DNA from: Perna viridis
Taxonomy: Eukaryota
DNA length: 64,000 nt
Assembly (NCBI GenBank): GCA_037379345.1
Contig: CM074519.1
Coordinates: 12,874,742 to 12,938,741, forward strand
Direction: 5' to 3'
The position numbers and the translations under genes were made by a program. How positions within the stretch are numbered: position 1 is the stretch's first letter; the number at the start of each line of letters is the position of its first letter. The notes beneath the pieces are model-generated. The model was not told where the DNA came from. It worked only from the letters and a program-made list of their open reading frames with translations, and did no database searches. Positions 1 to 57,089 of the stretch are shown here, one piece after another.

Positions 1-1090
1 AAATTTAAATATACACATTATATACAATGTCTCCGATGTGTATCTGGTCATCAAATGGACTGCAATCAATTGTAACTCAATACAGGATTGCTATGATAAA
101 TATCTATTTAATGATTTTCATATTACCTTTGTCAATCATTACCTACATATTAATCATCCCAACCACTGTTTTATTGTGACAATGGCCATAATTCAACAAT
201 GGACTAATGAATTTTGGAGGTCAGGGACCCATGAACTCAAGCTTTTGAGAACATATTGTCCATATTATCAGCAGAGATCTATGAGATTAACTTCATCATA
301 CTGGGTGAATTTAACACCAAGGTCAGTGATTCTCCGTATACAATTAACAACTCGAATATAAAATGTCACAGCTACGTGGGTGTAACACTTATATTTCACC
401 AAGAAAAAATCCAACTGACACAGTATTTCACTGACAGATATGTATTTAAAACTATGACTTGAGTGTTAGAGAAACAAATGTCCCTGGGTGTGCTGTAATA
501 TCTCAATACAGAATTATATTAAGCATATCAAAGAAATTTGGGATTTCAGATTTTGTTGAAATAAAAATATGGTTTAGTTCCGAACTCTTTAGACCTCCCA
601 AATGCATGGTATGATTACCCAAATAACAAATAATCTCCAGATGTCAAGACTTTAAATCGAACCCAGTTTAAATTAGTCAATAAATAACCTACCGAAGTCA
701 TGAACAGTTTGGGCTAAAACCAACGAAAGCCATCCCAACCTTTGTTATTCTACACAAAACTTTATAGTAAAATTGCATAGAGATCCATACACTTACACTC
801 AAATTATTGTAGTTCCTAAACCAATAGGGTTATAACTCCCAAAATTATTCCCAACCTTCTGTTTGTGATATGATCATTTTTTGTCCCTTTTTGGACCTTA
901 CGTCATTAAGGTTGTTACTGTGTGGAACCTACTTCAACAATTTCAGAGATGAATACACTTATGCTCAAGTTATTGTCCAAACACCTGAGGACAACAGTGA
1001 CATTGCTATACTGTTACCTGACTGCAATTTTTTTAAGTTCTGATAAAAGCATATTTGAAATCAGAAATGTGTAACTGCATCATTTCTTAC

Positions 1091-1201
1091 TTTTTTCCTG
1101 GCTTCGTCAAACAGAGACATAAGACTTTCCCTGGCAGTCAGAAAAGGGTTACTAGCTGCCAAACTTCTCATGTAATAATAAACAGCATCTAATTTTCTTC
1201 T
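1091..1201 (-). CDS. SMG6: SMG6 coding exon 8; gene continues beyond the window start
   Basis: Boundaries tgtag|AGA...AAA|gtaag. Encodes RRKLDAVYYYMRSLAASNPFLTARESLMSLFDEARKK, closely matching SMG6 as I recall it. Confidence 0.95.
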
Positions 1202-2733
1202 CTACAATGAAAAGGAATGTTCCAATCAAAAACTGTTTTGTTACAAAGACAATGAAAAATGACAATTTTAAAATCTAGACCTTCATACACTAGTAAAACA
1301 CATTCAACAATTTAAATTCACAAATTCATTTACTTCATCTTGCTATCTAATCTGAAAGGATGCAATAGTTTGTACAGTCTATTTGTTTACATCATACCAC
1401 ACAGTCTTCCTGTTTACACTTTTTATATTGATTGATAACTTTCAATTACTTAAATAAATGTACATGTATTACACTTCTGTAGTTCAACTGTAATGAAGTA
1501 TCACTTGTATTGAAGTTCGATTTCTTTTTGTACTGGTGAAGTTTTCTTGCTATTATCAGTCTACATGAATTGTTTAACTTAAGTTTGACATCTGTATAGA
1601 TCCATTTTGAGTGGGAACATCAGTGACACCTTGGGGACATACATGTACACCCTTCTGAAGAAATGAGTATTGATATGCATTTTACTTCTTTTGAAATCTT
1701 TTAATGAATTTTTTGGCCCTGTGTTTACCGTTATCTCTGTAAGTAATTACTATTTTCATAAAGGTTATACAGTGGTGTATTTGATGTGTTTCACCATATC
1801 TGTTCCGTTTTCTGTAATATGCTATAAATGACAAAATTATTTTTGTCAAATATTTACTTTCCATTTATACATGTAAATCATCAATTTAATTCATTGTCAC
1901 AGCTAGCCTAAATTATAGAGACAGTGAAATATGTATTGGCCATCATGGGTCAATATCATTCTAATAGGTCAATATTAAGCAAATCGACCTCATCTAATGT
2001 CAATACATATAGATATTCAAACTTTTGAAAAACAACAAAACAAATTCAGAGTTCCATGGCGAAATTGTTTAATACACTGAAGTGTTGTTTTTGGTATTGT
2101 TTTGGTTCTACTGGAGATTCCTTCCTATCGATCTGTTTTACAATCAATAACAAATACAAGACTTGGTTTAACGCACACATGTCTTGTTTTTTTTTTATGT
2201 TTCAGAGGAATTACAAAAAAAAATTAATTCACAATTGTCCCCAATATTTTAAAATCTGTGATTAAGCTCCAAGTCTTTATTTTATGGTTGGATATTGCAA
2301 GTGATTTTGTTATTTTTTTTTCCTTAAACTGACCCTTACTTTTGTGTTTTGTGAAATATGTGTCTTTTACTTAAAATTGGAAAACTTTGAGATGTGTATT
2401 GATAATACCTTGACTTGCTTATTGGATAACTTTTGGCTTTAGGAACTAATTCTTTACTAAGCAGGAAAATTTTACATCTTTCAGGAATTTTGTTTTACAA
2501 ACTAGGAAACATCCTTATTTCAGCAAAAATTAAAGGCAAAACAATATCACTGATTGCTGTTTACAAACTTACAAAAAGAAATATAAAACATCAACCACAA
2601 AGCAGATACATAATTTACATACTATCAGTATATAACAGAAGAGAAAGAAATCACAGAACAAAACAAAACAGTAGTGATTTTGAAGTAGACAATATTACCT
2701 ATCAAACAAAACAGATAATTCTTTTTCACTTAC

Positions 2734-2812
2734 GGTATATAACGCCAATATAGCTAACTGGTTATATGGTCTACCATTCTTTGGTGCCAATGTCTGGGCT
2801 TTAGTGTACCAA
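2734..2812 (-). CDS. SMG6: SMG6 coding exon 7
   Basis: Boundaries tttag|T...ACC|gtaagt. Encodes WYTKAQTLAPKNGRPYNQLAILALYT, containing the conserved PxNGxPYNQLA motif of SMG5/6/7. Confidence 0.95.
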
Positions 2813-3246
2813 CTAAAATACAGCAAACTTATTAAGAAGGTGTCCATGCAAATATCAGGCAATAACTCATCTATATCATATCAAAAATACATCCTTTCTC
2901 AAAGTCGAATGTTAGTTTTTGATTAACTGCAACGTTTAAAGAAAATACATGTAAATTACATTGAAAGCATTTAAATTTATTGAAAAAGGGAGATACATGT
3001 AGCTATATCATTTTGTGCAAAGTTTGGTTGCTTCCTTAGGGAACTTTAAAATAATTTTCTGAGCCTTCCATTGTTGATTAAAAAAAATGTACTATTGGAC
3101 ATACATATGATATAAACATTACATTGGAACAAAAAATTCTGTGAAATAAAATTTACCATGTGCCATATATATAGTATATTACAGGAATTGTCTTGTTTCT
3201 AAATGGACAGTCTCTTAGAAACAACAAAATTAAAAATATCATTCAT

Positions 3247-3807
3247 ACTATACTCGGCGTCACATAAATAACATACTGTTAAAATTTGAATAAAAATATT
3301 TTCTGCGACTTTATTGACACCTACCGTCGTTTAAATTGTCTTAAATGACTTGCTCATTCGTTTAGCCAAACGGCTTCTCCCTAAAGATTGAATCGTTAAA
3401 TTCCGGTCAGATTTTAATTCTCGGTGCCAATATTTACATTGTAAAAAGTCGGCCATATTTACAGTGATCGGGTTGCTAGGAGATGTTGGTTTACGTTTAA
3501 ATGGTTTGTCCAAAAACCGAAGAACCCAAAATGCATTTCGGCGTTATTTCGGATATCTTGGATTTATTTTATGCGAACAACGTACAATACCGAGAAGTTG
3601 ATCAAGCAGACGATTGTCACCGGAGTTCGACGGGAACTTACGAACTTCGTTTGTAAACAAGTCGTCCCGTAAAAACCAACATGGCGGATATTAGTATGGG
3701 ATTTTCCCGTAAGGATTTGTTACGCATGATTTAAGCTAATAAGCGACTTGTTTAGGGAGAAGCTGTTTGGCTAAACGAATGAGCAAGTCATGTAAGACAA
3801 TTTAAAC
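3247..3807. mobile_element. Truncated, rearranged copy of the same MITE family in an SMG6 intron
   Basis: 3247 to ~3745 is collinear and highly similar to 12831 to ~13330. The right end is replaced by an inverted copy (3751-3807) of 3329-3385. Confidence 0.8.
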
Positions 3808-3961
3808 TTTACAACTTTGTCATCATGCAATAAAAGGCTTCGATGAGCAAAACTACATGTAGGTACATATGTCCTACCTGAAACAGTTCAGGTAAGTGTA
3901 GACTCTATATTTATCTTGACTAGAAAATAACATTAAAGTAGAAGTTGGTAACAATACATAC

Positions 3962-4185
3962 TTTCTTGCTCTGCCATAGTTAATTTTTCCCGAGTCATTC
4001 ATCTGTTCCCTGTATCTAGCTATATCTCCCAGACAGATCATATTTCTCTGAGTACTTAGTATTGCAAGCTTCACAAAGCGATGGATATTTTCTGGAGGTA
4101 GACTACTGGTGTCAAGAAAGTCATCTAATTTGTAGCAATATTTTTGTTGAAGTTTCTGGATCAATTTCTCATAAAAGGCTGTACC
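3962..4185 (-). CDS. SMG6: SMG6 coding exon 6 (EST1 domain)
   Basis: Encodes GTAFYEKLIQKLQ...MICLGDIARYREQMNDSGKINYGRAR. LGDIARYREQ is characteristic of SMG6. Confidence 0.93.
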
Positions 4186-4425
4186 CTACAAAGAATGTTT
4201 AGAAATGTAAATAACTGCAATGTAAAGCATTGGTTTGTGTCTTACCACTTCTGCTTTATCATAGAATATTGTTCCATACAATGTGCAGCAAGAGACCTCA
4301 AGTTGAAACTGCAATCTAAATATCAAATAGTGTGTAAAAAGAATAAAAGTTTCAGTCAAACCAATCAAACCAGTGGAAAGCACAAAAATAGAAATCATAA
4401 AAAATATTTTTAAATATTAAAATAC

Positions 4426-4603
4426 CTCATCTAATATTTGAGTCAGCCTGGGTTTGGCATCTTCTTCTTCATTCATGTGTTTCCTGAAGACTTCTATTAC
4501 TTGATAGAACACAGCCTTCCACAGAAGTTGATCAACATTATGCCTTGTGGACAGATCAATATCCCATAGGATGAGGTATTCATATTTCTTCAGCAATTCT
4601 TGT
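4426..4603 (-). CDS. SMG6: SMG6 coding exon 5 (EST1 domain)
   Basis: Encodes QELLKKYEYLILWDIDLSTRHNVDQLLWKAVFYQVIEVFRK, which matches the SMG6 NVDQxLWKxxFYQVIE motif. AG/GT boundaries, phase 2/0. Absent from the ORF track. Confidence 0.92.
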
Positions 4604-5239
4604 CTAAGACAAATAATGCAATAACAAACATAACTAAATAGTACAAAAAATTTAATTATAATAATACAATACCTGTAATGAAAAAAAATACAGTGAGTAA
4701 TATAATTTACTTCAAAGAATGAAATTAGTCTTCCCTTGATTAAATGACAATCACCTGATAAACTTCCTTAAGGAGATAACTGCGCAATTAACAGATTTAA
4801 ACTTTCCATCAAACTTAAATTGAAATACCTAAGAAGTGATAGAAAGTTTAAATCTCCTTGTTCATAGTTCAGTTTACTACCAACAACATTTCATCAGGTA
4901 AAGGATATTAAATCAAGGGGAGACCAACTCTATTCCCTGAAGTAATAACACAAATTATTGATCAACAATTCTAGGCAATAGCCAAAAGGAATCGCCAAAA
5001 AGGAAAGTCTGTATAACTAATCGCAATGTCAAGGTAAAGGAAGTTTGAAATCACCACAAATGTTCTGACTAGATACAGGCATTTCTAATGGAACTGGTGG
5101 GTTAAACCAGGTTTAGTAGCATGCAAAAGAGTAACAATATAAAAATGAAATGTGGGGAAAATGTGCTTTCTTCATAAAGTGCTAGTTTTTTTTATTCAAA
5201 AACAAAAGTCATATAAGTCCTTTAAAATACATGTAATAC

Positions 5240-5362
5240 CTTTTTGAGTCTAATAAAGACATACTTTCTCCATTAAGTCGTCTGGCTACCAGCTTTCCAA
5301 GTTCATTATCTAAAGCAAGACATTCATTCAACATCTTACCAAACATGTCTTCTCTTTGTTTT
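5240..5362 (-). CDS. SMG6: SMG6 coding exon 4 (start of EST1/TPR-like domain)
   Basis: Boundaries ttcag|A...AG|gtatta, phase 2/2. Encodes KQREDMFGKMLNECLALDNELGKLVARRLNGESMSLLDSK. Confidence 0.8.
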
Positions 5363-6638
5363 CTGAAGATACAACAATAAACATACTTCATTGTATATAT
5401 CAAGCATACATGTATCCTGGGAATCTTAAGTTCATACAAGCTAAACATTGTCTTCTTTCAAAATGTGATACAAATGTATATGACTGTTAGAATTTAATCA
5501 AATAAATATAACCTCTATATCATGTTGAAATATGTTTCTTCCCATATGCACAATTATAACTTCTTAGTCTCCTGAACTGTTATCTTACATTTACATCAAT
5601 TACATGTAGGAAAATATATTTGAAAATCTAATTTTGTGATTTTGTGACCCAATGTCTAAAATTTTAATCCATGGAGTATATAGGAATCACCTTGTCATTC
5701 CAATCTCATCTTTGTCCCTTGTAAGCACTATTTGATTTTTTTCATCGTTTTTAAATTTCAATAGTGTCTAAATTTAAATTTATTCATCGATACCTCTTTA
5801 TTTTTTTAAGGGACTCAGACCTTTTTGAACTAATTTTTAGATGCATTTAATTGTGTAATATTTTTTCCACAGTGGTCACATTTAAAAGAGGGATGGTTAT
5901 AATCATGCCAAAGTACTTTAACATTTTTTGCGCCTGTCCCAAAGAAGGAATTTCTGGCCTCTATATGTATTGCTTTGTTTTCACTTACAGTTTACTTTTA
6001 TGCTGTTGGAGTATATATCGGTAGGGCCAACTATTTTGCTGTACCTATGTATAATGTTGTTTTGGGACCAGCTGCAGCCTGCCTTGGGATGTGAGGGTTA
6101 TATTATTGTTCATTGAAGACACATTGGTGGCCTTGAGGTTGTTGTCTTTTTGACATATTCACCATATCCATTCTCATTATATGTATCAAATCTTATTTCC
6201 TTTTGTGATATTCAACATTAAAGTACACATGTACAACATGGAGACTTGCAGACTTTTACTCAAGTCAAAAGAAAAGAAGTTCTAGTCAACTTTTGACCCC
6301 TTAAATCCATTCAAATAGGGTCATAACCCTCATAACTAATCCTAGTTGCACTATTGAGGTATGGAACCTTGTTGTACAATGTACATGAACAATTTCATGG
6401 AAGTACATTCACTTTTACACAAGTAACTGAGCCGAAGTCATATCTAAAAAAAAAATTTTGTGGACGTATAATAAAAGAAAATAGAGTTACAAATATTTCT
6501 CCTTAAATTAAAATGTACCACCACTTAAGATTTTTCACAGCTTATTTTTTTCCATCCATGTATTTTTTTACCAGAAACAAAATATAAATGTATATGGTAA
6601 TACTTAGATAATAACAGATTATTATCTATATTACATAC

Positions 6639-9130
6639 CCTCTAACCATCTCAAGATAGCCAGGTGGTGGTGGATACCCTCCATAAAAAAACCCATGAGG
6701 GGGTATCATCTGAGGTTGAGGTGGTGGAGGTCCCTGGTACATCCCCTGGTCTGGAAACTGTGGGGGGCCGTAAAACTGTCCATACCCCTGGAAAGGTGGA
6801 GTATGTGGATGAGCAGGCGGTGACGGTGAATCAATTCCTTGATCAAAGAATTTTAAGTTAGAAGAACCTTGGACTACAATAGGTTTGTTAGGATTCTTTG
6901 GATCAAATAACTGCTTCTGTCCAGTTAATGGTCGTGTGTTTCCCACAGCTTCTTTAGGTTTTGGTGAATGTGCCTTTTCTTTTTGAATTTTTTCCTCTAT
7001 GTGATCCTCAGAGGTATGGACATTTGGAGGCAGCTTTATTAAACCTCCTCCATGTGTCTTATCATTCTTCACATTTTTTTCATCTCTTTCCTTCTCACTA
7101 TTATTTCTGCTACGATTCCCATACTTATCACTAGATCCATGAACTTCCTTATCATAAGGTCTATCTCTTTTCCATTCATCTGAATCTTTACCTCGCTTGG
7201 GATCTCTGCCTTGATCTCCATGTTTATAACCATGGTGATGAATTTCTTGACGTCTGTCCTGCTTCCAGTCTTTTCTATGTTCATCAGATTCTCTTCTTAT
7301 TCTTTGACCTCTGCCCCCATCAGACTGCCTGGAACCATGGTAATGACCTACTGAATCTTGACCTTTGCGATAATCATCTCTTCCCCAATCCTCTCTACTT
7401 CTATTTCTCCCACCCCTACCTCTGCCAATATTTCTTCCTGAGTCTCTTTCAGAAGACCCTTTATTTTTGTCATCTTTTTTGGTTATGCCTTCAGGTTCCT
7501 CACTGTTACCACGACTACCAACTGTCTGTCCATCTCTGGTGTCATTCCCAGCATGTTGACGTCTTCCCCTTCCTCTTCCACGTCCAATGCTTTTACCATG
7601 AGGCAAGTTATCATTGTGGGGCATTTCAACCTGTCGTTTGTCACCACCAACTGTAACTTTGATGTTCAAACTATCTGGATCATTAAGCCTTTCTCTGCTA
7701 GTTCCTCCTTTCATACTTGAATTACTATTCTGCCTCCTGGGTCTCCTGTAAGACCCATACATATCATCATCACCAAGATTACTTCTAACACTATGTACAC
7801 TTGAAACACTAGAATCCCTACTCCTTCTTCCCCCTGACTCCCTTGACTGCCTTCTCCTATGATGACCTTTAGATCCATCACTCATCCTTCTTTCCCTCCT
7901 TCCACAACCACGGTAATAATCATCCATGTCCTGTCGATTGTCTTTGTTCCATCTTCTGTCCCATGATCCAGCATTGTAATTTGTATTCTGTCCATCAAGA
8001 GCTCTTCCTTGATATCTGTCTCCTGAATTTCTTTTGTTTCTTCTTGGAAAAGTACCTGCACTTTGATAATTTTTCTGTTCATTATTTTCTTTTCTATTTG
8101 AAATCTTATCCAACATATCATGAGAACCAGCCGGTTTAATATTATCCCAGCTTGGGGGCATGTCCTGTGGATCATCTGGAGATACCACTTGGGAAGCCCA
8201 ATCTCCCCAGTCAGAACTTTTGGGCTCTTTTTCCCAATCTATTCCCTCCTCCTGCTTTTCTAAATATTCTTTTAGTTTCTGTGTTTCATTATGAACCTGT
8301 TTAGCCATTTCCATTTCTACCTCTTTGTCCCAAACCAGTATTCTTTCAGTAGTTTCATCATCAATACTGAGGTCACTGCTGGTACTGACATCACTACTAA
8401 AGCTGCCAGTTCTCTGACGTCTCATGTTAGAAGAATACCTTTTAGATCCTGCTTTACCTCCACCACCCTTTGGAGGTTTCTGGGTCAAATTTTCTGCTGT
8501 CAACTTTGAGCCTTGATTATTGCGTCTCTCAAAGACCATGGTCTGTATAACATTATCATTATCAGATGCCTCTTCATCTGTTATATTATGTATATCTGGT
8601 TTGGAGCCTCTTAGATTTCCAAGTCTTCTGTTTGTTCGCTGAGGTTTTGGACTTAACGAGAACCGCTCATTCAAACTACTTGTCATTTGATTGTTTTTAT
8701 TACTACGAACATCTCTATAATCACCTTTACTCTCATGTGATCCCTGATGTTTTATCTTGTTTTTTACATTCGTATCAGATTTTGACCTTGAGGCTTGTTG
8801 GTTATGATCATGTCCAGCCACTTCTCCTGATTTTGATCTTGATACTTGTTTTGAGTCACCATCTTTAGAAACAGTTACTTTAATGTTCATAATGTCATCT
8901 GGTTTTATATCAACTCTTTTTACAGACATGAGTGATTCCTCGTCAATGTAAAGAGAGTTTTTTTCTACTTCACCAGACGACTCTGTTTCTTCATTCTCTT
9001 TTTGTTGCATTTCCAGTATCTTGCCCTTCGGAACATATCTTTGCATTTCTGGTCTTTTCCTTCTTGATTTTGAAGCATCATGTTTTTCATTAACGTGTAA
9101 TTCCTTCAGACTGAATGAAGCATCATCAAC
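6639..9130 (-). CDS. SMG6: SMG6 coding exon 3 (2492 bp), low-complexity N-terminal region with EJC-binding motif 2
   Basis: Boundaries tatag|GTT...GG|gtatgt. Contains most of the 806-aa ORF plus an upstream in-frame extension with RRKRPEMQRYVPK. R/G/S/D-rich; includes GGLIKLP and QLFDPKNPNKP motifs similar to SMG6. Confidence 0.9.
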
Positions 9131-10114
9131 CTATAATGAAGCTACATTTATAACAATGCTTCATAATCATATATTTCCACAATAAAGAACTTGAAACAGC
9201 AGATATCTTTATGCTGTATTTCTAAGGCAATAATTCTTTAATGAAGACTGTTGTGTTATTGCTAGTAGTATGTTATCAACAAAATCAAAACAGTTTCTGA
9301 AGAAGTTATCTAAGGATGCTTGTAACCAAATTTTTGAAGTGAAAAAAAAAAAAAAATTAACTTTACTTTTCAGTTTTCAAGTCATGTAATTTTTTTTAGA
9401 AACTTAGACATGTGCAAAGTACTTAATCCTGTGGAAAAAAATTAATAAGGGAGATTTCATATATCAAAATGAAACTGAACCAAACTCCATTTGTTACAAG
9501 TCCATATTAACAATAAGCTGTATGTTGTACATTTGTATTTTCAATCAAAGCATCATCTAAAATTAATCTTACAATCACTGTCATGTACAATGTATATGAA
9601 GAGCACTATTTTTCTAGAATGTGAGAGCACTCTAAAAAGTCATCTTTTTGACGAACTTATGACCGATTATTAATGAAATGAAAAACCAATGACCAGTGAC
9701 CCAGACATCTGATTCTGTGATTGTGGTTTTGTTATGTAAAATAATGGATGATAGGTTCATGTGAATTTCAGAACTTGAAAATACAAATATAATGCTTTTG
9801 TAAATTTACTTTTGAGTTTTAAATATAAAATTGTGGCTTTGTATCTCATTACAAAAAGCAATACATGTGAAAAACAGAAATGCAAAATAAAAATATTTCA
9901 TAAAAAATATGTACTGATCAGCAGTCAATTTCCGTAAGACACTTTTACAAATCAGTTTGACGGATCGATGACTGATCAGACAATTGATAAATTATAGGTG
10001 TTGGATTGCTATTTTAGTTGCATGGATTAATTCAGGTACTGTACCATTCCATTTCTTGTTGTAGTAACATAATGATGACATGTCTTGTCAAATGCATTAT
10101 AAAATAACATGTAC

Positions 10115-10299
10115 CTCTCTTTCAACACTATTTTCCTTGCTGTTTTCTGTGCTATTTTCCTCTATTTCTTCCTCCCAGTTCTCCCCTTGCTGCCCTCTAA
10201 CATCATCAGCTGTCTCATCTGTTGATGAATGTCTTTGTTTCTGTAAATTAGGAGGCCTATATATCCCTATCTCTGGTCTTTTGAACTTTCTTTGTTTAT
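10115..10299 (-). CDS. SMG6: SMG6 coding exon 2, with EJC-binding motif 1
   Basis: Boundaries tacag|AT...GAG|gtacat. Encodes DKQRKFKRPEIGIYRPP, matching the SMG6/UPF3 EJC-binding motif pattern (RPxxxxYxP). Phases 1 and 0 fit the neighbouring exons. Confidence 0.85.
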
Positions 10300-10926
10300 C
10301 TGTATTATAAAACAAGATAATTTTTTGCCGTGAAGCAGAGTTTGATTTTGTAAGAAGGTACATATGTTTGATGTGACAATGAAAATGACCACCTCGTTTG
10401 ACAAGTCCTTTTATTTCTGAGGCATACAAGGTCATCAAACCTGCTAACAATTCAAGATAGTTTCACAAGTACATGTCCATAAGAAAACATCATTTATGTT
10501 GTGGTTTGCTTAGGCAGCAAAATCGTTTACATGGACATGAAAGTAACAGTCCTGCTGGAAACTTGTTCAGGTGAATAAAAGCAACAGTTCATTAAACAAC
10601 TTTTTTTAGTAACTGCCCATTCCTCTGGTACAAATGTTACAACTTGCATTATTTAGTTGTTCTATTATGATCAATAAAGGTCAACTTGTCCGTGTAGTCC
10701 AGGTGGACAGTGGTCTGTCTCCACAATATGTACTTTTCCCCCCTGACAATGACCATAAGGTGAAAATTTTGGGCCTCGTGTTTTATTACATGTACATTGT
10801 AAGTTTCACGTGTATTTCATTTGAGATTAGTTCCCATTTACCTTTTACATGTAATTGTGCCAACTGTTTGCTTCATTATTATAATATTCTTATTTATGCT
10901 GAACTAAGCCACTTCACAACTTAACA

Positions 10927-11141
10927 GAAAAGCAGAGGACGCTTACCCTACCAGTGCACCTGGTCCATGCTCCCAGTTTTTAGTGGAGTCCTAGTTGCTC
11001 ATTTGCTTTTGAGACTTTGTATGTATGATTTTAGTTACTTTATGTTCTTCGTTGTGTATGTCTGTTTTCCATGTCAGGTCTTTGTCCCTGGATTACATTC
11101 TTTTGATTACCGCTATAACCTTGGTTTTCTTGATTACTCTT
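10927..11141 (+). mobile_element. Short 3'-end copy of the same Penelope-like family in SMG6 intron 1
   Basis: Highly similar to ~16847-17058 (GAAAAGCAGAGGACG...TTACCGCTATAACCTTGG). Confidence 0.8.
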
Positions 11142-12830
11142 GTAAAAAGTAAACATCTCTGTATGTGTAACATCAGACTGTACAGGAAAATTGTTTTACA
11201 TGTTCATTATCTGTGTACTTTAACCCCTTCCCCAGTATAAAATAATTGTTGAAAGGGATAAGCTAGACTTTGAGCCCTGTCAATCTTGTTGTTTTAACTC
11301 TTTGGCAGCAACATTAAGTGCTCAAATCTACACTCAAACATCTTATTTATTTCATTACATGGAAAACAAATACTGAATAACACAGAGTGCATTTCCAAAT
11401 GATTACATTGTATTTGTATAGATCTGGGATATGAAGCATCAATGGACACATACATGTACATGTATGTGTTCCTTTTTTGTTATGAACAACCACATACACA
11501 GGCATTGTACAAAATTATGACTCACCTGATCATTGCTTAATAATTTTCATAATGTTTTGGCAAAACTATAATGATGTTTTAAATTTCATTGCAAACTCAG
11601 CCCACATGTAACTGTTAGTTAAGTTAAAATAGACAATAGTTCAATCAATCTTAATGAAAAAAGGTCAGGGTACTCACTCCTCCCAAAAAATCGCAAGTCC
11701 AAGGACTCCCTTGTCACAAAAATGACAAGTCCTGTAAGGAATTCAGAGGATCACAAGAAAAGTGAATGGTCTTATGTTGTAAGTTTGTACTGCTAATGGT
11801 AGTGGACAGATTTTTTTAGCATCTTTGCAACATGTACAGATAACATGTGTTTGTTCACCTTCTTCCACTTTCCCCAACCACAGAAACGTTTTCAGACATT
11901 ATACACAGAATATTCTAATTTTCTTTTGTGTGCAGGCTGTACAAGAACTAAATTCTTCCTCTGCGTTGTCCAAACGAGGACCAGGCGGCGATCTTGTTAA
12001 ATCATCTTCAGCCGGTCATTTTCGACCACCGAAAAAAGCTTCGAGTATACTCGAAACATTTCTGATTTTAAGTATGTTTAAAATTAAAGTTATATATACC
12101 CTCATTTTAATGATTAGTCGTGTTAAACAATTTTGATCTTTAATGGATGCCAACCAATATTTACTTCAGTATACATAAAAACAAACCCTTTGACAAACCT
12201 AGCACATATATAGTTATCTCCAATATGTGTCTGGTCATAAAATGGATTTCAATTCATTTTAACGCAATACTGGACAGTTAGGAAGTATTAATCAACGCTA
12301 AATAATTATTTTACGATTCCTTTTTCTCAAGTTCTATTTGCCAATCGTTAATACCACACGCTAATTGTCTGAGCCGCTTTTTGGGGGGGGGGCCATCGAC
12401 TTGCATTAAAGTTGGACAAATTAAAAATCAAACCGACTTCATGTTGAGTAATCATATTGCTACTGTTGATTTAGGCAATTGGATTGAGAATTTTCACAAG
12501 TCCCCTGGACTCCCCTGTTGCAATTTTCAAGGGTCCCCAATGAATTTTGAGAGTCAGGGACCTGGAAGCTTGGGTCCCCAGAGAACCCTAGGGTGTTACA
12601 ACATCAGCAGGCAAACTTGTTTAAAACCACTACAAATTTCAAAACTGGAGCATCACTTGTGCTTGATAATAAAATAAACCTTGAAGGTATATTGTATTTG
12701 TAGTAACATTAGGAAAGTTTACATAGTTTTATGATATACATTGGAACATGACAAAAAGAAAACATTAACATACAAAGACAATTACACTTTTATTTAAGAA
12801 CAATACAAAACAAAGTATTTATTATGGAGC

Positions 12831-13475
12831 ACTATACTCGGGGTCACATAAATAAGATACTGTTAAAATTTGAATAAACATATTGTCTACGACTTTATTG
12901 ACACCTACCGTCGTTTAAATTGTCTTAAATGGCTTGCTCATACATTTAGCCAAACGGCTTCTCCCTAAACATTGAATCGTTAAATTCCGGTGAGATTTTA
13001 ATTCTCAGTCCCAATATTTACATTATCAAAAGTTGGCCATGTTTACAGTGATCGGCTTGCTAAGAGATGTTGTTTACGTTTAAATGGTTTGTCCAAAAAC
13101 CGAAGAACCCAGAATGCATTTCGGCGCTAATTTGGATATCTCAGATTTATTCTACGCAAACATCATACAACACCGAGAAGTTGATCAAGCAGACGATTGT
13201 CACCGGAGTTCGACGGGAACTTACGAACTTCCTTTGTAAACAAATCTTCCCGTAGAAACCAACATGGCGGATATTAGTATAGGATTTTCCTGTAAGGATT
13301 TGTTACGCACGATTTCAGCCAATGAACGACTCTTTGCCTTTGGAACTATCACGTCATGCATATGTGCGAACTTTCTTCAGATTAAATAAAAGAGAGACAA
13401 CTCTAGCCGTAAGTCCCGACAGTTTAAAAAATAGAGTTTCAAATCGAAAATGTGCTATGTGACTTCGAGTATAGT
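12831..13475. mobile_element. MITE-like non-autonomous DNA transposon (intact copy) in SMG6 intron 1
   Basis: 20-bp terminal inverted repeats (ACTATACTCGGGGTCACATA / TATGTGACTTCGAGTATAGT, 2 mismatches). No transposase. A second copy lies at 3247. Confidence 0.8.
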
Positions 13476-13756
13476 CATAACAAGCACTGGTCAGGCCCAG
13501 GGTAGTAAAAAAAATCATTACAATCTACTGATTATTTCAGATGAAATATACAAGATATAATCAGTAAAGAGTGGAAGACTTTCACATGCTTTTTTTGTCA
13601 TGAAAGAGACAATTTTGGCTCAAATTTTAATGAATAGACATAAATGTTATTGTTTGTACTTTCATTTTCATGCTATCTTTACAAAGCCATCTCGTAAATT
13701 CAACATAATAAGCCTTATTTCTCCATACACGGTAGTTCAATGTATACAGTTTATAC

Positions 13757-13871
13757 CATTGCTCTTCGAGCTTTCCTTCTGGTGGTGAACGGACTTAAGT
13801 TTTGTCCTATAATCCACAATGTGTTCCAATTCTTCGTATGTGATTTTAACGGTTTTCAATTTGGCAGCCAT
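13757..13871 (-). CDS. SMG6: SMG6/EST1A coding exon 1 (start codon)
   Basis: Translates MAAKLKTVKITYEELEHIVDYRTKLKSVHHQKESSKSN, resembling the vertebrate SMG6 N-terminus (MAEGLERVRISASELRGIL, from memory). Ends G|GTATAA in phase 1, matching the phase-1 acceptor of the next exon. Confidence 0.75.
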
Positions 13872-13887
13872 TTTCAACTGCCGCCAT
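13846..13887 (-). promoter_or_regulatory. Out-of-frame upstream ORF overlapping the SMG6 start; YY1-like ATGGCGGC motif
   Basis: An ATG 16 nt upstream of the main ATG encodes MAAVENGCQIENR*. Whether it lies in the transcript is unknown. Confidence 0.4.
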
Positions 13888-14088
13888 ATCGAATCTCCAC
13901 ACTAAAGAGTTAGTGTGGGATCATCCAAACGAAAGGACGAGTACGAATGGGAACGGAAAATTGGTATGGAAAATAACAACGCGATATTGTTGGGGAAAAA
14001 CATCAGATTTCAACCTGATATGAGCTTCCAAAAACATTTTTCAACAACAGAAATTGATCAAAATTTTTTAAAAATTATAATTTTATAG

Positions 14089-14715
14089 GGTCTAAAATGT
14101 GTAACCCGTACCCGTACCCGTACCAACTTTTCCCCGTACCCAAATAATGGTTAGCCAAAATATTCTTTCTTACGGATATGGATATTAAGAACTGCATGAG
14201 GTGTGGAAAGTCCGTTTCAATTCACGTCTAATCACGAAAATGATGTATATTTTTCTAATGTTTCTTGTTTGATCGGTTTTCTGAAGCCAAAAGGTCTAAA
14301 ATTTGTAACCGGAAGTTGCCATACCAAACTAATTATTGACTATTTCTCACTTTCCTATCCAAATTTTACGGTTTTCTAAAATCATTAAGGAGTTAAAACT
14401 TTACTCTAAGACTTTTGATAAAGTTTTGAAAGATTTAATATTGTTTTAAAAATTAAGTGATTGAATTTGAATTCCGTAGCGTACCTAACGACAATCCCCG
14501 TACCAGCAAAGAATGGATACGATCTTATCCAGAATGAAAAACTAAGTCTCATATACAGAGTCAGATGCGATTTTGATTTTGATTTATCGTCAATGAAAAT
14601 TTTGATAATATCATGATGTTCCATGCATGTCAAATATGCATTCAAATTGTACAGATAACAAAAATAACGGACTTTGATTTTGGGTACGGGAATTTCGGGT
14701 TACACATTTTAGACC
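14089..14715. mobile_element. MITE-like element upstream of the SMG6 start
   Basis: Perfect 20-bp inverted repeats GGTCTAAAATGTGTAACCCG (14089-14108 / 14696-14715). Subterminal CCCGTA repeats and a third degenerate TIR copy near 14292. Confidence 0.75.
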
Positions 14716-15429
14716 ATACCTTATAATTTGTATAAAGACGGGCGTGTCGGGCTTACAGGTCCCCCAACAAGATTTGGATTTTTGGGGACACGATCTCTTG
14801 ATTTTTACAAGGAGTTATGCTATTTATAAATCCTTGATTTTTCACAAATTTATTTATATTAACGCCTCTAAAACCCGAAGTCGCGGACCGCGCTTTTGTA
14901 GTACAATTACCGGGTGGATCCGTAGACTCTAATGTTCATTATGTGATCAAAAGGGTCATGATCATGATGTAAAAATAATTAGGGAAATCAACCATAAAGA
15001 CAGTCCGGCTGTACCAAGAGGCTAGTTAATTATATATTTGGTTAAATGTTAACCATTAACCTCTAAAAGACTACAATTGACTATATCAAACTAAACTTTT
15101 AAAAGCTAGATTTCAATTCAATGCAAAGGAAACAGAAGTAATGAGGCTTCATCGTGTTGGAAACTAAATGTAGACGGGAATGAAATTAAGCGAGGGGACA
15201 AATTAATTTACATAGGAAAACCCTTAATTACTAAATGATTCCACACAGAAAGATATATAAAAACAGATTGACAAATGCGAGAACAGAATTTTACGAGCTG
15301 AGAAACATTAGGTAATAAAAACAGTACATCAGGAAAAACAAAGTAAAACTGTTTAACAGCATCGTAAAATAAGGTCAAGTATTTGGCGACAAGAGTAAAT
15401 TCAAGTTATTTCTACTTATTAGCTGATTT

Positions 15430-17055
15430 CTCTGTCAGAGTGGTTAAAGGCCGTGAGGTCATTAATTTTGAAACGAATGAAAGTTTTAAGTAGGTCAATT
15501 GAGTGCCAAGGCTACATCAGTTTTCAAAGACCCCGATGTAGCAAAAAATATTGTCTACTATACATGACAAATATGTTGTCTTACCAACAGACAAAGCCCA
15601 AAACAACATTGTTTTTGTATGCAAAACGTTTTACATCCAATGTTTATTATCATAGGTAGACGTAGAAAATAATAGCAGTGATATGACCTATACTGCTACC
15701 ACACTCTCCAAAGAAAAGATTGTGGAAAACCATAAATCTTTGCTATCCTCTTTTGGTCTCTCTACCAAGGACGATGATTGTGATTTACCGTCTATGTACT
15801 GGATTCATAAACTCCACCAAAATCCATACAAACAACGTTTCACAGCTGGATCTGCACAATGTACCACCAAACCTCTTTCAAAACTTTTAACTTCTATACT
15901 CACAACTGTCAAAGTGGGTCTGCAGTCCTAACACCGCATTCGTTACTACCGTAGTGGTATTAATTCAATGTGGATCCTGAAAAATTCGAAAGATCTTTTG
16001 GAGACAATCAGTTCAAGACTATTATCTGAATATAATAGCATTAAAACGTATGGTTTTTCTATCCCCATACTCAAACCTCGACTTAAAACATTATACATCG
16101 TTGTTTTTCCAAAAAAGATGGTACACCTAGATACAGATATATAGTTCTTGGTAGAGATTCCGAATACTTTGCAAGAAATAATTCCAAGAACAAATTGTGC
16201 TCCTTTACTTGCTGAATATTCCTTCACTCTTATAAGGCTGACTTTATACCTGATCTGATCCGAAAGAAAGAATATCGTTTGGCTAGATCCTTTAATCTCA
16301 GTTTCTGCAATGTAGATGATGTATTATCTTTAACAATCCTAATTTCGGGGATTTGATACATCGCATCTATCACAAATAACTTGAGATAAAGGATACTACA
16401 GACACTGTGAAGTCAGCCTCATATCTTGACCTACACTTAGAAATCGATGGTAAAGGAAAACTATTGACCAAACTTTACGACAAACGTGATGACTTTTCAT
16501 TCAGAATTGTCAACTTTCCTTTCATCTGTGGCAACATCTCTTCAGCACCTGCGTATGGAGTGTTCATATCACAACTCATACGTTATGCCAGAGCTTGCCG
16601 AAACTACACAGACTTTTTGTATCGCGCTAGAACTCTAACAAATAGGCTTCTGGAACAGGGTTATGTTGCTACAAGATTGAAGTCACCACTACAAAAGTTT
16701 TTTGGTCATCACCATGAACTCGTGGATCGTTATGGTGTATCCATCTGCACCATGAAAACTAATTTATTCAACGTGTCATAGTTTTCCTTTCCTCGTTTGT
16801 CCACCCTGGACTTGACTTTTTATGAGCAACTCGGTGGGTGTTTCTGGAAAAGCAGAGGACGTTTACCCTAACGGTGCACCTGATCAATGCTCCCAGTTTC
16901 TAGTGGAGTCCAAGTTCCTCATTTGCTTTTGTTACTTTGTATGTATGATTTTAGTTACTTTATGTTCTTTGCTGTGTATGTCTGTTTTCCATGTCTGGTC
17001 TTTGTCCCTGGATTACATATTTTATTACCGCTATAACCTTGGTTCCCTGAATTAC
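15430..17055 (+). mobile_element. Decayed, 5'-truncated Penelope-like retroelement (RT pseudogene plus 3' region)
   Basis: Frameshifted fragments in order: LPTDKAQNNIVFVCK, LPSMYWIHKLHQNPYKQRF, MWILKNSKDLL, TNCAPLLA, VDDVLS, YLDL...KLYDKRDDFSFRIVNFPF...PAYGVFISQLIRYARAC. These are typical PLE RT motifs. No C-terminal GIY-YIG is seen. Confidence 0.8.
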
Positions 17056-17340
17056 TATTTCTGTCTGTTGTATTTCTGAAAACAAACTGGTAAGTTATGA
17101 AACATACTATAAAAGTAACAACTCGATATGATGATTACTATACAGAAAAGAAAGTAAATATTGAATATATGAAAAACATATTCTAGTGGTGGTGGTATTA
17201 AAACGTAAATGTCACAGAGACGTAATTTTTTTCCATAAAACAATAAGAACAAATATTTATAAATCTGTATATGAACTCTTATTTATATCATGTATTTTTT
17301 GCGTATGAAAATAATTTGTTTAAATAAATATATAAATGTA

Positions 17341-17865
17341 AACACTTTTAATATCACGGTGGACCCTGCATTGTGACAGACCCAGAGTTATGTGACTCCG
17401 GTAATGCCAGTACTACGAAGAAGGTTGAACTTACAAGTGGTAGGTGCTTGCGCATGATCTAATTCTTTTTAGAACCATTGTGTCACAAACGTTTTATTAG
17501 TATGCATGCACTTTACATCAGCAGTGAGTGCTAAAATAAAGGTGCCAAAAATTTGCCCTCGATATAGTTGCATTTGAAAATTCGACATAGAAGAGCTCTT
17601 CTGTGTGTTTGCTTGATCCAAATGAGCACAGAGTACTAACACTCAGGATGTAGGAATGAATTATCCTTTAAAATAAAAATAAGTGTCAGGAAAACACATG
17701 ATATCACCAAATGTAACATGTATTGCAAAATGTAAACAGAATAAAAACCAAGGAGGAGACAATCAAATCAGTTTTGTAAGCAGATGTAAGGAAAATTGTT
17801 ATAGCCGTCTTTTCTACGGTACGACTAATTTGCATATTGACAACAGTTTCGGTACGTTTCATTTG
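17341..17865 (+). repeat. Old, diverged, internally deleted copy of the 1180-bp array unit
   Basis: Collinear anchors shared with the unit: AACACTTTT, TACTACGAA, TGCTTGA, TTTAAAATAAAA, AACATGTA, CAAAATGTAAA, GAATAAAAACCA, ATCAAATCA, and a block identical at 50/53 positions (17810-17862). Confidence 0.8.
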
Positions 17866-17866
17866 A

Positions 17867-18251
17867 TTTGATATTCAATTAGTTAACAAGTTCAGACGTA
17901 CTGTTATATTGTTCTTAATTTCGTTATTTTGTAAAACGGTTTGGTTGAGCCGTAAAGTAAAAAAGTTTGAAAAGAAATGTGGGACAAGTAAAACTATTTA
18001 TATGAAATTTTTAAATGAACTTAAAGTTCGTATTACTGCTGATTTTTATAGATTTGATAGACTACGATTTAATGAATATTGGAGACAGACTGATCTTTTC
18101 TGTAATGTCAATGATGAAGAATTGAAAATTATTTTTTGTTGATTCTATTAATTGTACAATGTCCTATCTGTGATATATTGATTTTATGAACTTGTTGTAC
18201 AATCGATATTATGATTTGTGGAATAAAATGTTTGAAATATAAAAAAAAAAA
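17867..18251 (+). mobile_element. 5'-truncated Tx1/L1-clade-like non-LTR retrotransposon 3' end with poly(A)
   Basis: Open frame ...ILFLISLFCKTVWLSRK...FLNELKVRITADF...FNEYW...LFCNV..EELKIIFC* resembles Tx1-type ORF2 C-termini. It is followed by a short 3' UTR, AATAAA (~18222) and an A-run (18240-18251). No TSD found. Confidence 0.6.
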
Positions 18252-19450
18252 GAGTATGGCTGAGGTTAAACGACTTCATCATAGCAAACCCAACACTTTT
18301 CTCTATATCTAGGACCACGGGGGGTTCCTCTCTCTAATTTAAAGAATACTATATTCTTACAGACAGATCGGTGAAGCTTGTTTCGCAACTAATTATACTA
18401 CGAACAAGCCTTAATTTGCAAGAATACGGTGTTAGCGCCTCAACAATTTTTTTATCTGTGAACTGTGTTACTAACGGAAGAAAAATGCACATAAACTTGA
18501 TCAGAGGAGTGAATGCGTAAATTCCGCTAGGTTTTCCTCCTCGACGGCGTTCTAGTTACTTTGATGTTTTAACATAAATATATTCTACTGAAAGAGTCAT
18601 TAAGTAGTGTTACCATTATTCAGTCACAAAAATCTGTCTATTTGATGTTTATTCTGTGTCTTGAAACTAACAGCACAGTTAAAGTGAGCACGTGCCTATG
18701 CTTTGAGTACAGAAAAGGTCACTATTTTGTCTTAAACCCTACAGGCCTCCGAATTTTGTATACCTCTATAGTTTATAAGTTATTTGCGACTGCTTAAAGA
18801 ATATTTTAATAGATATTTTTGCTTTTTATACTAGCGTGTCTCTGCTTGACCTACATAAGTATAAAGTACTGAATAAAATGAAAACTACTCGGGACACAAG
18901 AATAAACTGCCTTTTAAAATAAAACTACGCGTAAAGAAAACAGCTGATGGAACATGTACTACAAAATGTAAAAACGAATAAAAACCACAACGTAGATCAT
19001 CAAATCAAAGTAAGCACACGCTGGAAATGCCGTTTTAGTCATATTTAAATGCCATCAATTTCGTAGACACATTTTCTATGGTACGACTAATTTGCATATT
19101 GACAATAGTGTCGGTACGTTTCATATACGTATCCAAATTATTATGTACAGTACTGTTTAAGGAATTATAAAATGCAAAAATGAAGCGAAGCTGAAATGAA
19201 AGTATGGCCAAACGTTTGATGCAAAAGTGGCCAAAATTAACAAGGATTGGACTAATGCAAGGTCCGTTACGGGTAAATATGGTGCAATCATTAATTTTGC
19301 ACTAGAATTGACTTGAACAGACTTCCAGATAGATTAATATTCTTGGTTACATAAGATTGTCTAACTAAAATTGCCAGTGAATATTATTACTCATTTGACT
19401 TAGCCATTGTGATGCAGACGAGCTGCTCAAAGAGTATGGCTGAGGTTAAA
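18249..19450 (+). ncRNA. Putative rod-like, possibly circular, structured RNA encoded by each array unit (first unit shown)
   Basis: About 12 nested helices share an axis near 18780-18805, with many + strand G-U pairs and a hairpin across the unit junction (19394-19450). Manual pairing only; no expression data. Confidence 0.55.
19072..19124. promoter_or_regulatory. Conserved 53-nt block with a perfect octamer ATTTGCAT (19090-19097), present in every unit
   Basis: 50/53 identical to 17810-17862, whereas the flanks are much more diverged. The octamer lies between GTACGAC and GTCGGTAC arms. Confidence 0.5.
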
Positions 19451-54978: not shown

Positions 54979-55445
54979 GGTCTCAGTATCGTATTAATTT
55001 TCCCATAGACTTCTATAGTGAAGTGCATATTTTTAGGATTTTTTAAAAAATATGTAAATTGATTCAATAAAACTTTCACTTATGTAGCATTTCTAAGGAC
55101 ATGTGAAAAAATAATTTCCCGCAAAGAAAATAGGGTGAGTCCACGAAGATCGGACAGAAAAGTAGTCTCGAACTATAAATAGCCATTTTCCCTACTTTCA
55201 CTTTCGTTTTGCACTCACCAAACCAACCTTTTCAGTGGAACATTTTTATGATATTATGTTAGATTTTCTTTTAAAAAAGTTCTTCATCTTACGGTGTGAT
55301 GTTTGCTCTATTTTATAAGTCATTGTTCATATCTTTTGACAAAATATTAGTTTGTAGAGAGGCAAAAAGAAAATGCACTATATTTTTATAACATCCATGT
55401 TTTGACGTACACCTGCTCAGGGATATGCAATACGATACTGGTACC
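54979..55445. mobile_element. 467-bp MITE-like insertion in an array unit (copy 1)
   Basis: 17-bp TIRs GGTCTCAGTATCGTATT / AATACGATACTGGTACC (2 mismatches). Flanks AATTAT / TATTAT indicate a 5-6 bp target duplication relative to empty units. Confidence 0.9.
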
Positions 55446-56622
55446 TATTATACTACGAACAAGAGTTAATTTGCAAGAATACGGTGTTAGCGCCTCAACA
55501 TCTGTGAACTGTGTTACTAACGGAAGAAAAATGCACATAAAGTTGATCAGAGGAGTGAATGCGTAAATTCCGCTAGGTTTTCCTCCTCGACGGCGTTCTA
55601 GTTACTTTGATGTTTTAACATAAATATATTCTACTGAAAGAGTCATTAAGTAGTGTTACCATTATTCAGTCACAAAAATCTGTCTATTTGATGTTTATTC
55701 TGTGTCTTGAAACTAACAGCACAGTTAAAGTGAGCACGTGCCTATGCTTTGAGTACAGAAAAGGTCACTATTTTGTCTTAAACCCTACAGGCCTCCGAAT
55801 TTTGTATACCTCTATAGTTTATAAGTTATTTGCGACTGCTTAACGAATACTTTAATAGATATTTTTGCTTTTTATACTAGCGTGTCTCTGCTTGACCTAC
55901 ATAAGTATAAAGTACTGAATAAAATGAAAACTACTCGGGACACAAGAATAAACTGCCTTTTAAAATAAAACTACGCGTAAAGAAAACAGCTGATGGAACA
56001 TGTACTACAAAATGTAAAAACGAATAAAAACCACAACGTAGACCATCAAATCAAAGTAAGCACACGCTGGAAATGCCGTTTTAGTCATATTTAAATGCCA
56101 TCAATTTCGTAGACACATTTTCTATGGTACGACTAATTTGCATATTGACAATAGTGTCGGTACGTTTCATATACGTATCCAAATTATTATGTACAGTACT
56201 GTTTAAGGAATTATAAAATGCAAAAATGAAGCGAAGCTGAAATGAAAGTATGGCCAAACGTTTGATGCAAAAGTGGCCAAAATTAACAAGGATTGGACTA
56301 ATGCAAGGTCCGTTATGGGTAAATATGGTGCAATCATTAATTTTGCACTAGAATTGACTTGAACAGACTTCCAGATAGATTAATATTCTTGGTTACATAA
56401 GATTGTCTAACTAAAATTGCCAGTGAATATTATTATTCATTTGACTTAGCCATTGTGATGCAGACGAGCTGCTCAAAGAGTATGGCTGAGGTTAAACGAC
56501 TTCATCATAGCAAACCCAACACTTTTCTCTATATTTAGGACCACGGGAGGTTCCTTTCTCTAATTTAAAGAATACTATATTCTTACAGACAGATCGGTGA
56601 AGCTTGTTTCGCAACTAATTAT

Positions 56623-57089
56623 GGTCTCAGTATCGTATTAATTTTCCCATAGACTTCTATAGTGAAGTGCATATTTTTAGGATTTTTTAAAAAATATGTA
56701 AATTGATTCAATAAAACTTTCACTTATGTAGCATTTCTAAGGACATGTGAAAAAATAATTTCCCGCAAAGAAAATAGGGTGAGTCCACGAAGATCGGACA
56801 GAAAAGTAGTCTCGAACTATAAATAGCCATTTTCCCTACTTTCACTTTCGTTTTGCACTCACCAAACCAACCTTTTCAGTGGAACATTTTTATGATATTA
56901 TGTTAGATTTTCTTTTAAAAAAGTTCTTCATCTTACAGTGTGATGTTTGCTCTATTTTATAAGTCATTGTTCATATCTTTTGACAAAATATTAGTTTGTA
57001 GAGAGGCAAAAAGAAAATGCACTATATTTTTATAGCATCCATGTTTTGACGTACACCTGCTCAGGGATATGCAATACGATACTGGTACC
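56623..57089. mobile_element. 467-bp MITE-like insertion in the adjacent array unit (copy 2)
   Basis: Same site and orientation as copy 1. Two substitutions seen between the copies. Confidence 0.9.

Follow-up and report, generated by a model that had tools for sequence, protein, structure and literature searches.

On balance, we read the diverged copy of a 1180-bp repeat unit that lies beside a tandem array in Perna viridis (here called the relic) as an old terminal monomer of this same non-coding array, which escaped homogenisation. The relic is colinear with the unit and on the same strand, it carries an internal deletion, and a LINE replaces the last 304 bp of the unit. In the best reading the relic is hence neither a second colonisation of the locus nor proof of a structure. 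The initial annotation had held that the family occupied the locus more than once; this is not needed, and the geometry fits an end monomer left behind by the same array.

The window, i.e., the whole stretch of 64,000 nucleotides that was analysed, contains exons of SMG6/EST1A on the reverse strand (3874-10462). These gave 13 matches, all molluscan and headed by Tegillarca, Pecten, Ylistrum and oysters, with best exon identities of only 65-72%. On this basis the host would be a bivalve, probably a pteriomorph, and none of the species matched. The array starts about 8 kb beyond the SMG6 exon at 10097-10462. Relic, LINE and array are arranged as follows:

17363-17410, forward strand: weakly aligned left part of the relic, where the nhmmer alignment starts, equivalent to unit 18346-18395
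17411-17537, forward strand: relic block A, equivalent to unit 18396-18522, gap-free with 77/127 positions identical (0.61)
17599-17782, forward strand: relic block B, equivalent to unit 18832-19016, with 114/154 aligned columns identical
17810-17862, reverse strand: relic block C, equivalent to unit 19072-19124, with 50/53 positions identical (0.94)
17865-18248, forward strand: 3' end of a 5'-truncated LINE with the last 91 ORF2 codons, 3' UTR, AATAAA and A-tail
18249-64000, forward strand: tandem array of the 1180-bp unit, head-to-tail, with 38 unit starts, running off the end of the window

The unit is an AT-rich, non-coding repeat. As the window ends inside the array, its copy number is at least 38. 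All units are 98.7-99.9% identical to the first one, except two that bear a MITE, and the array is homogenised, with 45 substitution sites in 1162 columns of 38 units. Many head-to-tail copies, homogenisation and no protein-coding signal mark it as a satellite-like macro-repeat. Some variants are common to neighbouring units; for example, a variant at 18737 marks the final four units, and variants at 18804 and 18997 mark the first two together with the unit at 28869. Such blocks of neighbouring units with common variants are the pattern of local unequal exchange.

A search of window positions 1-18248 with the unit (nhmmer) returned only two matches, 17599-17864 (E 4.4e-24) and 17363-17590 (E 1.5e-6). 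Both are colinear with the unit, on the same strand and in the same block order. The relic is thus, as had been proposed, a diverged unit copy beside the array and in its orientation. The 17.3-kb flank held no further unit copy. Three segments of the relic, 17400-17545, 17595-17790 and 17800-17870, each aligned better than 200/200 shuffles. The left limit is weak (17335-17400 alone was beaten by 164/200 shuffles, and 17320-17410 gave P=0.19), and for 17545-17600 alone 136/200 shuffles scored as well. The right limit is the insertion point of the LINE and no natural end; an extension of homology to the right of block C was rejected as chance (P=0.44) and is in fact LINE sequence. The relic covers unit positions ~100-876, and about 250 nt of the unit interior have no counterpart in it.

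Of the three blocks, the one nearest to the array is the most similar to the unit and the most distant one the least, and the change is not smooth. Block B has about 72% identity as a whole and varies by part from 0.63 to 0.88, with indels of 13 nt, 10 nt and smaller sizes relative to the unit. Blocks A and B are 27-39% diverged, compared with ~1% within the array, in line with the earlier statement that the family is old. A uniform neutral decay does not describe these values, as block C is significantly more conserved than block B (Fisher P=0.0014).

The LINE between relic and array was recognised from its open frame (17867-18139), which gave 77 phmmer matches, several at the C-terminus of ~1150-aa proteins. 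A domain scan took in 8 of these 77 matches; RVT_1 and Exo_endo_phos were present in all six full-length LINE matches scanned, and zf-RVT in five of the six. A word-based protein search of the fragment found nothing and Atlas held unnamed clusters only; its identity came from phmmer. ORF2 C-terminus homology, A-tail and 5' truncation make it an APE-type LINE, and from the APE, RT and zf-RVT architecture we take its clade to be L1/Tx1-type. Like such elements, 17865-18248 has a 5'-truncated ORF2 end and an A-tail and is inserted in a multicopy repeat. Unlike them, it lacks a target-site duplication, none being seen at the LINE junctions, and its insertion site has lost 304 bp of the unit. Clear LINE homology begins at 17867, a few bases past block C, and extensions further left cross a stop. 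The A-tail ends at 18248 and abuts the first array unit, i.e., unit positions 877-1180 (304 bp) are replaced by 386 bp of LINE, after which the first array unit begins with its position 1. Over 91 codons the LINE frame is free of stops, which would be the case with a probability of 0.05 after 30% substitution and of 0.48 after 6%. Because the frame is still open, the LINE is probably younger than the divergence of blocks A and B and would therefore not be its cause. Its age is compatible with the age of block C. Protein P0015 is identical to the last 46 residues of the LINE.

For the terminal monomer we propose the following course. Unequal crossing-over and gene conversion would keep interior units ~99% alike and rarely reach the end unit, which may thus have been left out and drifted to 60-75% identity. 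Block C may owe its identity either to a more recent conversion by array units or to a DNA-binding factor that maintains it. A late LINE insertion with loss of 304 bp would have completed the separation. Sections of PMC5139131 and PMC5615363 describe how monomers decay at the ends of arrays, and a passage of PMC7767330 mentions diverged flanking monomers as a loose parallel. Like the terminal monomers of bivalve and other satellites in those sections, the relic adjoins the array, is colinear with the unit and has the same orientation; it is also truncated, interrupted by a mobile element and far more diverged than the interior. Unlike them, its divergence is patchy (61-94% identity) and its LINE junction is abrupt. 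There is no graded series, because the monomer next to the relic is already ~99% identical.

The Crassostrea gigas satellitome, as given in part of PMC8268682, comprises monomers of 21-3287 bp, many of them Helitron-related. Compared by description, the unit resembles the long-monomer bivalve satellites of that part, being non-coding, AT-rich, head-to-tail and >1 kb long. It occurs in at least 38 copies, compared with at most 19 and 13 in the two >2-kb standalone C. gigas families given there, and it differs from the Helitron-related satellites in having no Helentron modules. As a decayed edge monomer the relic would be ordinary but useful, i.e., an internal outgroup for dating the repeat family that also shows which unit bases have been kept.

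Another possible origin is by separate insertions. Relic and unit would then be distinct subfamilies of a solo LTR or a non-autonomous transposon, with one copy later amplified in tandem, and block C would be a conserved terminus. Bivalve satellites are often TE-related (in the relevant sections of PMC8268682 and PMC7492417), the locus is rich in TE fragments, and a promoter-like layout found in unit and relic (see below) would fit an LTR. We consider this origin improbable, given that relic and unit have no terminal inverted repeats in common and no microsatellite, and that the 17.3-kb flank is devoid of a further copy. Moreover, the one Helitron-type junction motif occurs at chance frequency and lies inside block A, and the right end of block C is the LINE break and no terminus. 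A solo LTR or TRIM would have TG...CA ends and a target-site duplication; there is no duplication around the relic, but on the right the LINE has truncated it. A Helentron HINE, for which part of PMC7492417 gives subTIRs, an adjacent IR, a microsatellite and a 3' palindrome as features, was rejected since neither a microsatellite nor common subterminal repeats were found. A hammerhead retrozyme was also rejected; its core motif is absent from unit and relic, and there was no Rfam ribozyme.

Further left in the window, degenerate reverse-transcriptase-like frames lie at 15656-16781 (region ~15400-17060), the tail of which is repeated at 10925-11150. These frames gave no relevant Pfam match; they presumably belong to a Penelope-like element. 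An element at 12831-13475 has 20-bp terminal inverted repeats (90%), and its interior resembles an inverted copy at ~3330-3670 with similar translated frames; both are probably members of a MITE family. At 14086-14718, an inverted-repeat arm of 23-36 bp is present three times and is accompanied by a short tandem of 6 bp; together they suggest nested ends of non-autonomous DNA transposons.

The preferred reading, a terminal monomer left to decay, also has to account for an inverted-repeat arm, the substitutions of which had been taken to preserve pairing:

17643-17661, forward strand: relic arm, with 7 transitions relative to unit 18889-18907
18889-18907, forward strand: unit arm, unchanged in 38/38 units
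18603-18624 and 18647-18664, forward strand: unit partner arms, inside the segment absent from the relic

Exactly 7 of the 19 arm positions differ, as described initially, and all changes are transitions (one G>A, three C>T, three A>G). Both partner arms fall inside the ~250-nt unit segment missing from the relic, which agrees with their proposed deletion. The relic arm indeed pairs with all 18 bases of the array partner 18647-18664, with one bulge, on the plus strand; on the minus strand pairing fails (-2.7 kcal/mol). The number of G-U pairs rises from 2 in the unit to 6-7, and the duplex weakens from -20.8 kcal/mol (unit) to -14.1 kcal/mol (relic), i.e., by ~6.7, so the stability of the helix was not retained. 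This value is the 35th percentile of 3000 random mutants with 7 transitions, 35% of which were as stable or more. The change of ACTAC to ATTGC could likewise be located (18958 versus 17722). It is not in the ACTAC of the inverted repeat, which lies at 18884 and is lost in the relic, and its pairing had a chance of 6/10.

Whether pairing exceeds transition bias, the test named in the initial annotation, depended on the substitution rates assumed. Given that all changes are transitions, full pairing was found in 8,437 of 50,388 placements of 7 transitions (0.167; P=0.17), and at the transition rate of the flanks (0.9) P was 0.065-0.094. Block-wide transition fractions of 0.45-0.6 yielded P=0.001-0.009, with 0.003 at the B+C rate of 0.56 and 0.001 at the all-block rate of 0.45. 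In the ~55 aligned columns that include the arm, 16/17 changes are transitions. The flank columns outside the arm contribute 9/10, five of these being T>C or G>A changes, which disrupt plus-strand pairing. The arm is unusual in that 0/119 overlapping 19-nt windows with at least 7 differences were fully compatible with an invented perfect partner. In our reading, the arm substitutions remain pairable chiefly owing to the A/C-rich composition of the arm, where A-U and G-C pairs become G-U by A>G and C>T without any need for selection. The argument from pairing adds little, because wobble-tolerant transitions set against the partner of another copy are not covariation; as a hint of structure, pair-compatible substitutions are weak. 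At the 7 changed sites, the unit partner arm equals the unit arm 6 times and the relic once. Such a pattern would result from an inverted duplication that postdates the split of the relic, or else from a one-sided decay of the relic, and in the former case the relic arm would never have had an array-type partner.

A plus-strand RNA with the long-range helix 18647-18664/18889-18907, selected in the relic lineage until its partner was lost, would be favoured by the low P under block-wide substitution spectra. Moreover, neither arm holds an array variant (expected 0.7 and 1.5), and among the short duplexes of the unit this helix ranks first, although by energy it is borderline, being equalled by 4/60 shuffles scan-wide and by 0/300 when arm 18889-18907 was held fixed. 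In the plus-strand fold of 18560-18960 its probability is 0.99, with an overall z of -0.08 for this fold. A helix as good as that of the unit occurred in 34% of 500 shuffles with DNA scoring and in 92% of 400 with wobble-aware scoring. The second inverted repeat, 18603-18624/18868-18889, has a probability of 0.001 on the plus strand. Both cannot nest because their arm orders cross, and they do not form together. Nor would one expect six Watson-Crick pairs to become wobbles in a helix under selection.

With the left end of the relic itself, 17365-17376, the relic arm forms a slightly better duplex (11/12 bp, -16.0 kcal/mol; 5/300 shuffles, one of four tests), which would again favour a selected helix. 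However, had the partner in the relic co-evolved, there would be no need for the arm to fit that of the array. The colinear unit counterpart of 17365-17376 makes only 7/12 pairs, and neighbouring windows scored 4-5/60 in a rerun. An internal unit duplication that would make 17365-17376 a homologue of the array partner looked attractive by eye, with two double changes; it was rejected as 226/500 and 149/500 shuffles were as good. In addition, the plus strand has no promoter or terminator layout and many internal T-runs. We therefore hold selection on a plus-strand helix to be very unlikely.

Folding gave little beyond these helices. Whole-fold z ranged from -1.3 to +0.9, and of the sliding 80-nt folds 0/16 relic windows and 2/37 unit windows fell below z -2. 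The latter are 18339-18418 on the minus strand (z -4.0) and 19239-19318 on the plus strand (z -3.4), neither of which is kept in the relic. RNAalifold produced weak consensus folds of ~-5.7 kcal/mol for block A on both strands. The minus-strand fold has 6 double changes in 22 pairs and a folding term of only -1.75, and we did not count it as evidence. According to a section of PMC8250186, single-sequence folds and low-power alignments are no evidence of conserved structure.

On the minus strand, block C and a tract between it and the arm resemble promoter elements:

19072-19124, reverse strand: unit block C, with an octamer at 19090-19097
17828-17835, reverse strand: relic octamer, exact, inside block C
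17665-17680 (unit 18911-18924), reverse strand: conserved A/T tract, TATA-like, a putative promoter element

This layout raises the possibility, which we judge unlikely but worth weighing, that the unit is a multicopy ncRNA gene on the minus strand with an snRNA-like promoter, the relic being a diverged paralogue or pseudogene. With a start near 18890/17645, octamer block C would lie ~190-205 nt and the TATA-like tract ~30 nt upstream. The arm would then be the untranscribed spacer between TATA and start, and its pairing therefore irrelevant. Tandem arrays of snRNA genes, and of type 3 Pol III ones, exist. The exact octamer sits inside the most conserved 53 bp, and a distal element with octamer, like that of type 3 Pol III promoters, is present in unit and relic. 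Its chance is 0.4% in a random 53-mer of unit composition, a value weakened by the motif having been picked after looking; one other octamer occurs in 17.3 kb of non-array DNA. On the minus strand it lies upstream of the TATA-like tract by 179 nt in the unit and 163 nt in the relic. Like the promoters (SNAPc-dependent snRNA and type 3 Pol III ones) in the section of PMC3499247 that sets out this layout, the unit has an octamer ~200 nt upstream, with a TATA-like tract on that strand as well. Unlike these, it has no recognisable PSE or Rfam product, contains internal T-runs and varies in spacing.

Array variants are depleted in blocks B and C, which hold 3 of 45 variant sites where 9.2 would be expected (P=0.01 by the hypergeometric test and 0.06 in a rotation control). 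Likewise, columns identical in the relic hold 3 compared with 9.4 expected (P=0.008). Block A showed no depletion of array variants. The depletion would suit a gene. However, runs of at least four T on the minus strand begin in the unit at 18884 and 18878 (+7 and +13), where they would stop Pol III, and in the relic first at 17580. In the relic, the TATA-like tract and the candidate PSE block are spaced differently, with a 10-bp insertion separating them. A PSE core of the vertebrate type is absent, and we found no published bivalve PSE consensus, snRNA-type promoter or comparable array. An Sm site at a homologous position is also missing; the matches (relic 17553, unit 18634, which is loose, and 19238) lie outside the significantly aligned blocks, and the non-array flank holds 21 strict matches. 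Conversion from the array explains block C equally well. In bacterial and archaeal genomes the block C pattern had 0 matches; a pattern of the TATA region had 6 loci that match only at the pattern, and we took these as chance.

The second element of the minus-strand gene would be a 7-bp hairpin (B1) just downstream of the candidate start, i.e., the first structure of the RNA:

17600-17632, no strand assigned: relic B1 hairpin, 17600-17606 with 17626-17632
18825-18865, no strand assigned: unit B1 hairpin, 18825-18831 with 18859-18865

Relic and unit differ by three double changes in B1 if an offset of 6-8 nt is allowed for the 5' strand. As many were reached in 5/300 null runs, the parameters of which were set after seeing the hairpin; in the gap-free alignment the 5' strands are not homologous. 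The hairpin is favoured on the minus strand, where its pair probability in the unit is ~0.8-0.9, compared with 0.06 on the plus strand; in the relic it is 0.29 on the minus strand. Taken together, the depletion in B and C, the excess identity of block C and the double changes in B1 point to some constraint beyond pure drift, and it is block C together with the B1 hairpin, rather than the arm, that deserves attention. If the constraint on the octamer block and B1 were real, the relic would be the footprint of a new multicopy RNA gene and also of a bivalve snRNA-type promoter. We are doubtful of the fuller claim that the unit is a new bivalve multicopy ncRNA gene by SMG6, in at least 38 copies, with a minus-strand octamer and TATA-like promoter and a covarying 5' hairpin, and that the relic is its anciently diverged paralogue with a promoter still under constraint.

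Searches for known products did not assist the gene reading. Rfam, at E up to 10, gave 7 and 2 matches, each of them weak and well short of its gathering score, and ARAGORN found no tRNA. Resemblances to 7SK, U2, U7, telomerase RNA and pre-miRNA arrays were dropped for want of Rfam support; these candidates also fail by internal T-runs, by the absence of a template repeat common with the relic, and by hairpins that are too short. Pfam scans of 4/4 unit frames had no match below E 0.1. Block A had looked coding by eye and was rejected, since its best synonymous count of 7 equals the column-shuffle null (P=0.46), with no period-3 signal. Short minus-strand ORFs were likewise discarded; in relic and unit alike they begin where block C borders its flank, but 3/3 changes in block C alter residues. 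This absence of a codon signal also counts against the gene, and we retain the decayed array-end monomer as our reading of the relic.

Within the array, a MITE-like insertion of ~470 bp (473 nt) with 17-bp terminal inverted repeats occurs at 54979-55446 and 56623-57090. It occupies two adjacent units, in the loop of the unit hairpin 18378-18411. The two copies are 99.6% alike, and we therefore conclude that the insertion was duplicated together with the unit. Both MITE-bearing units have a common 9-nt deletion and changes in the 3' strand of this hairpin.
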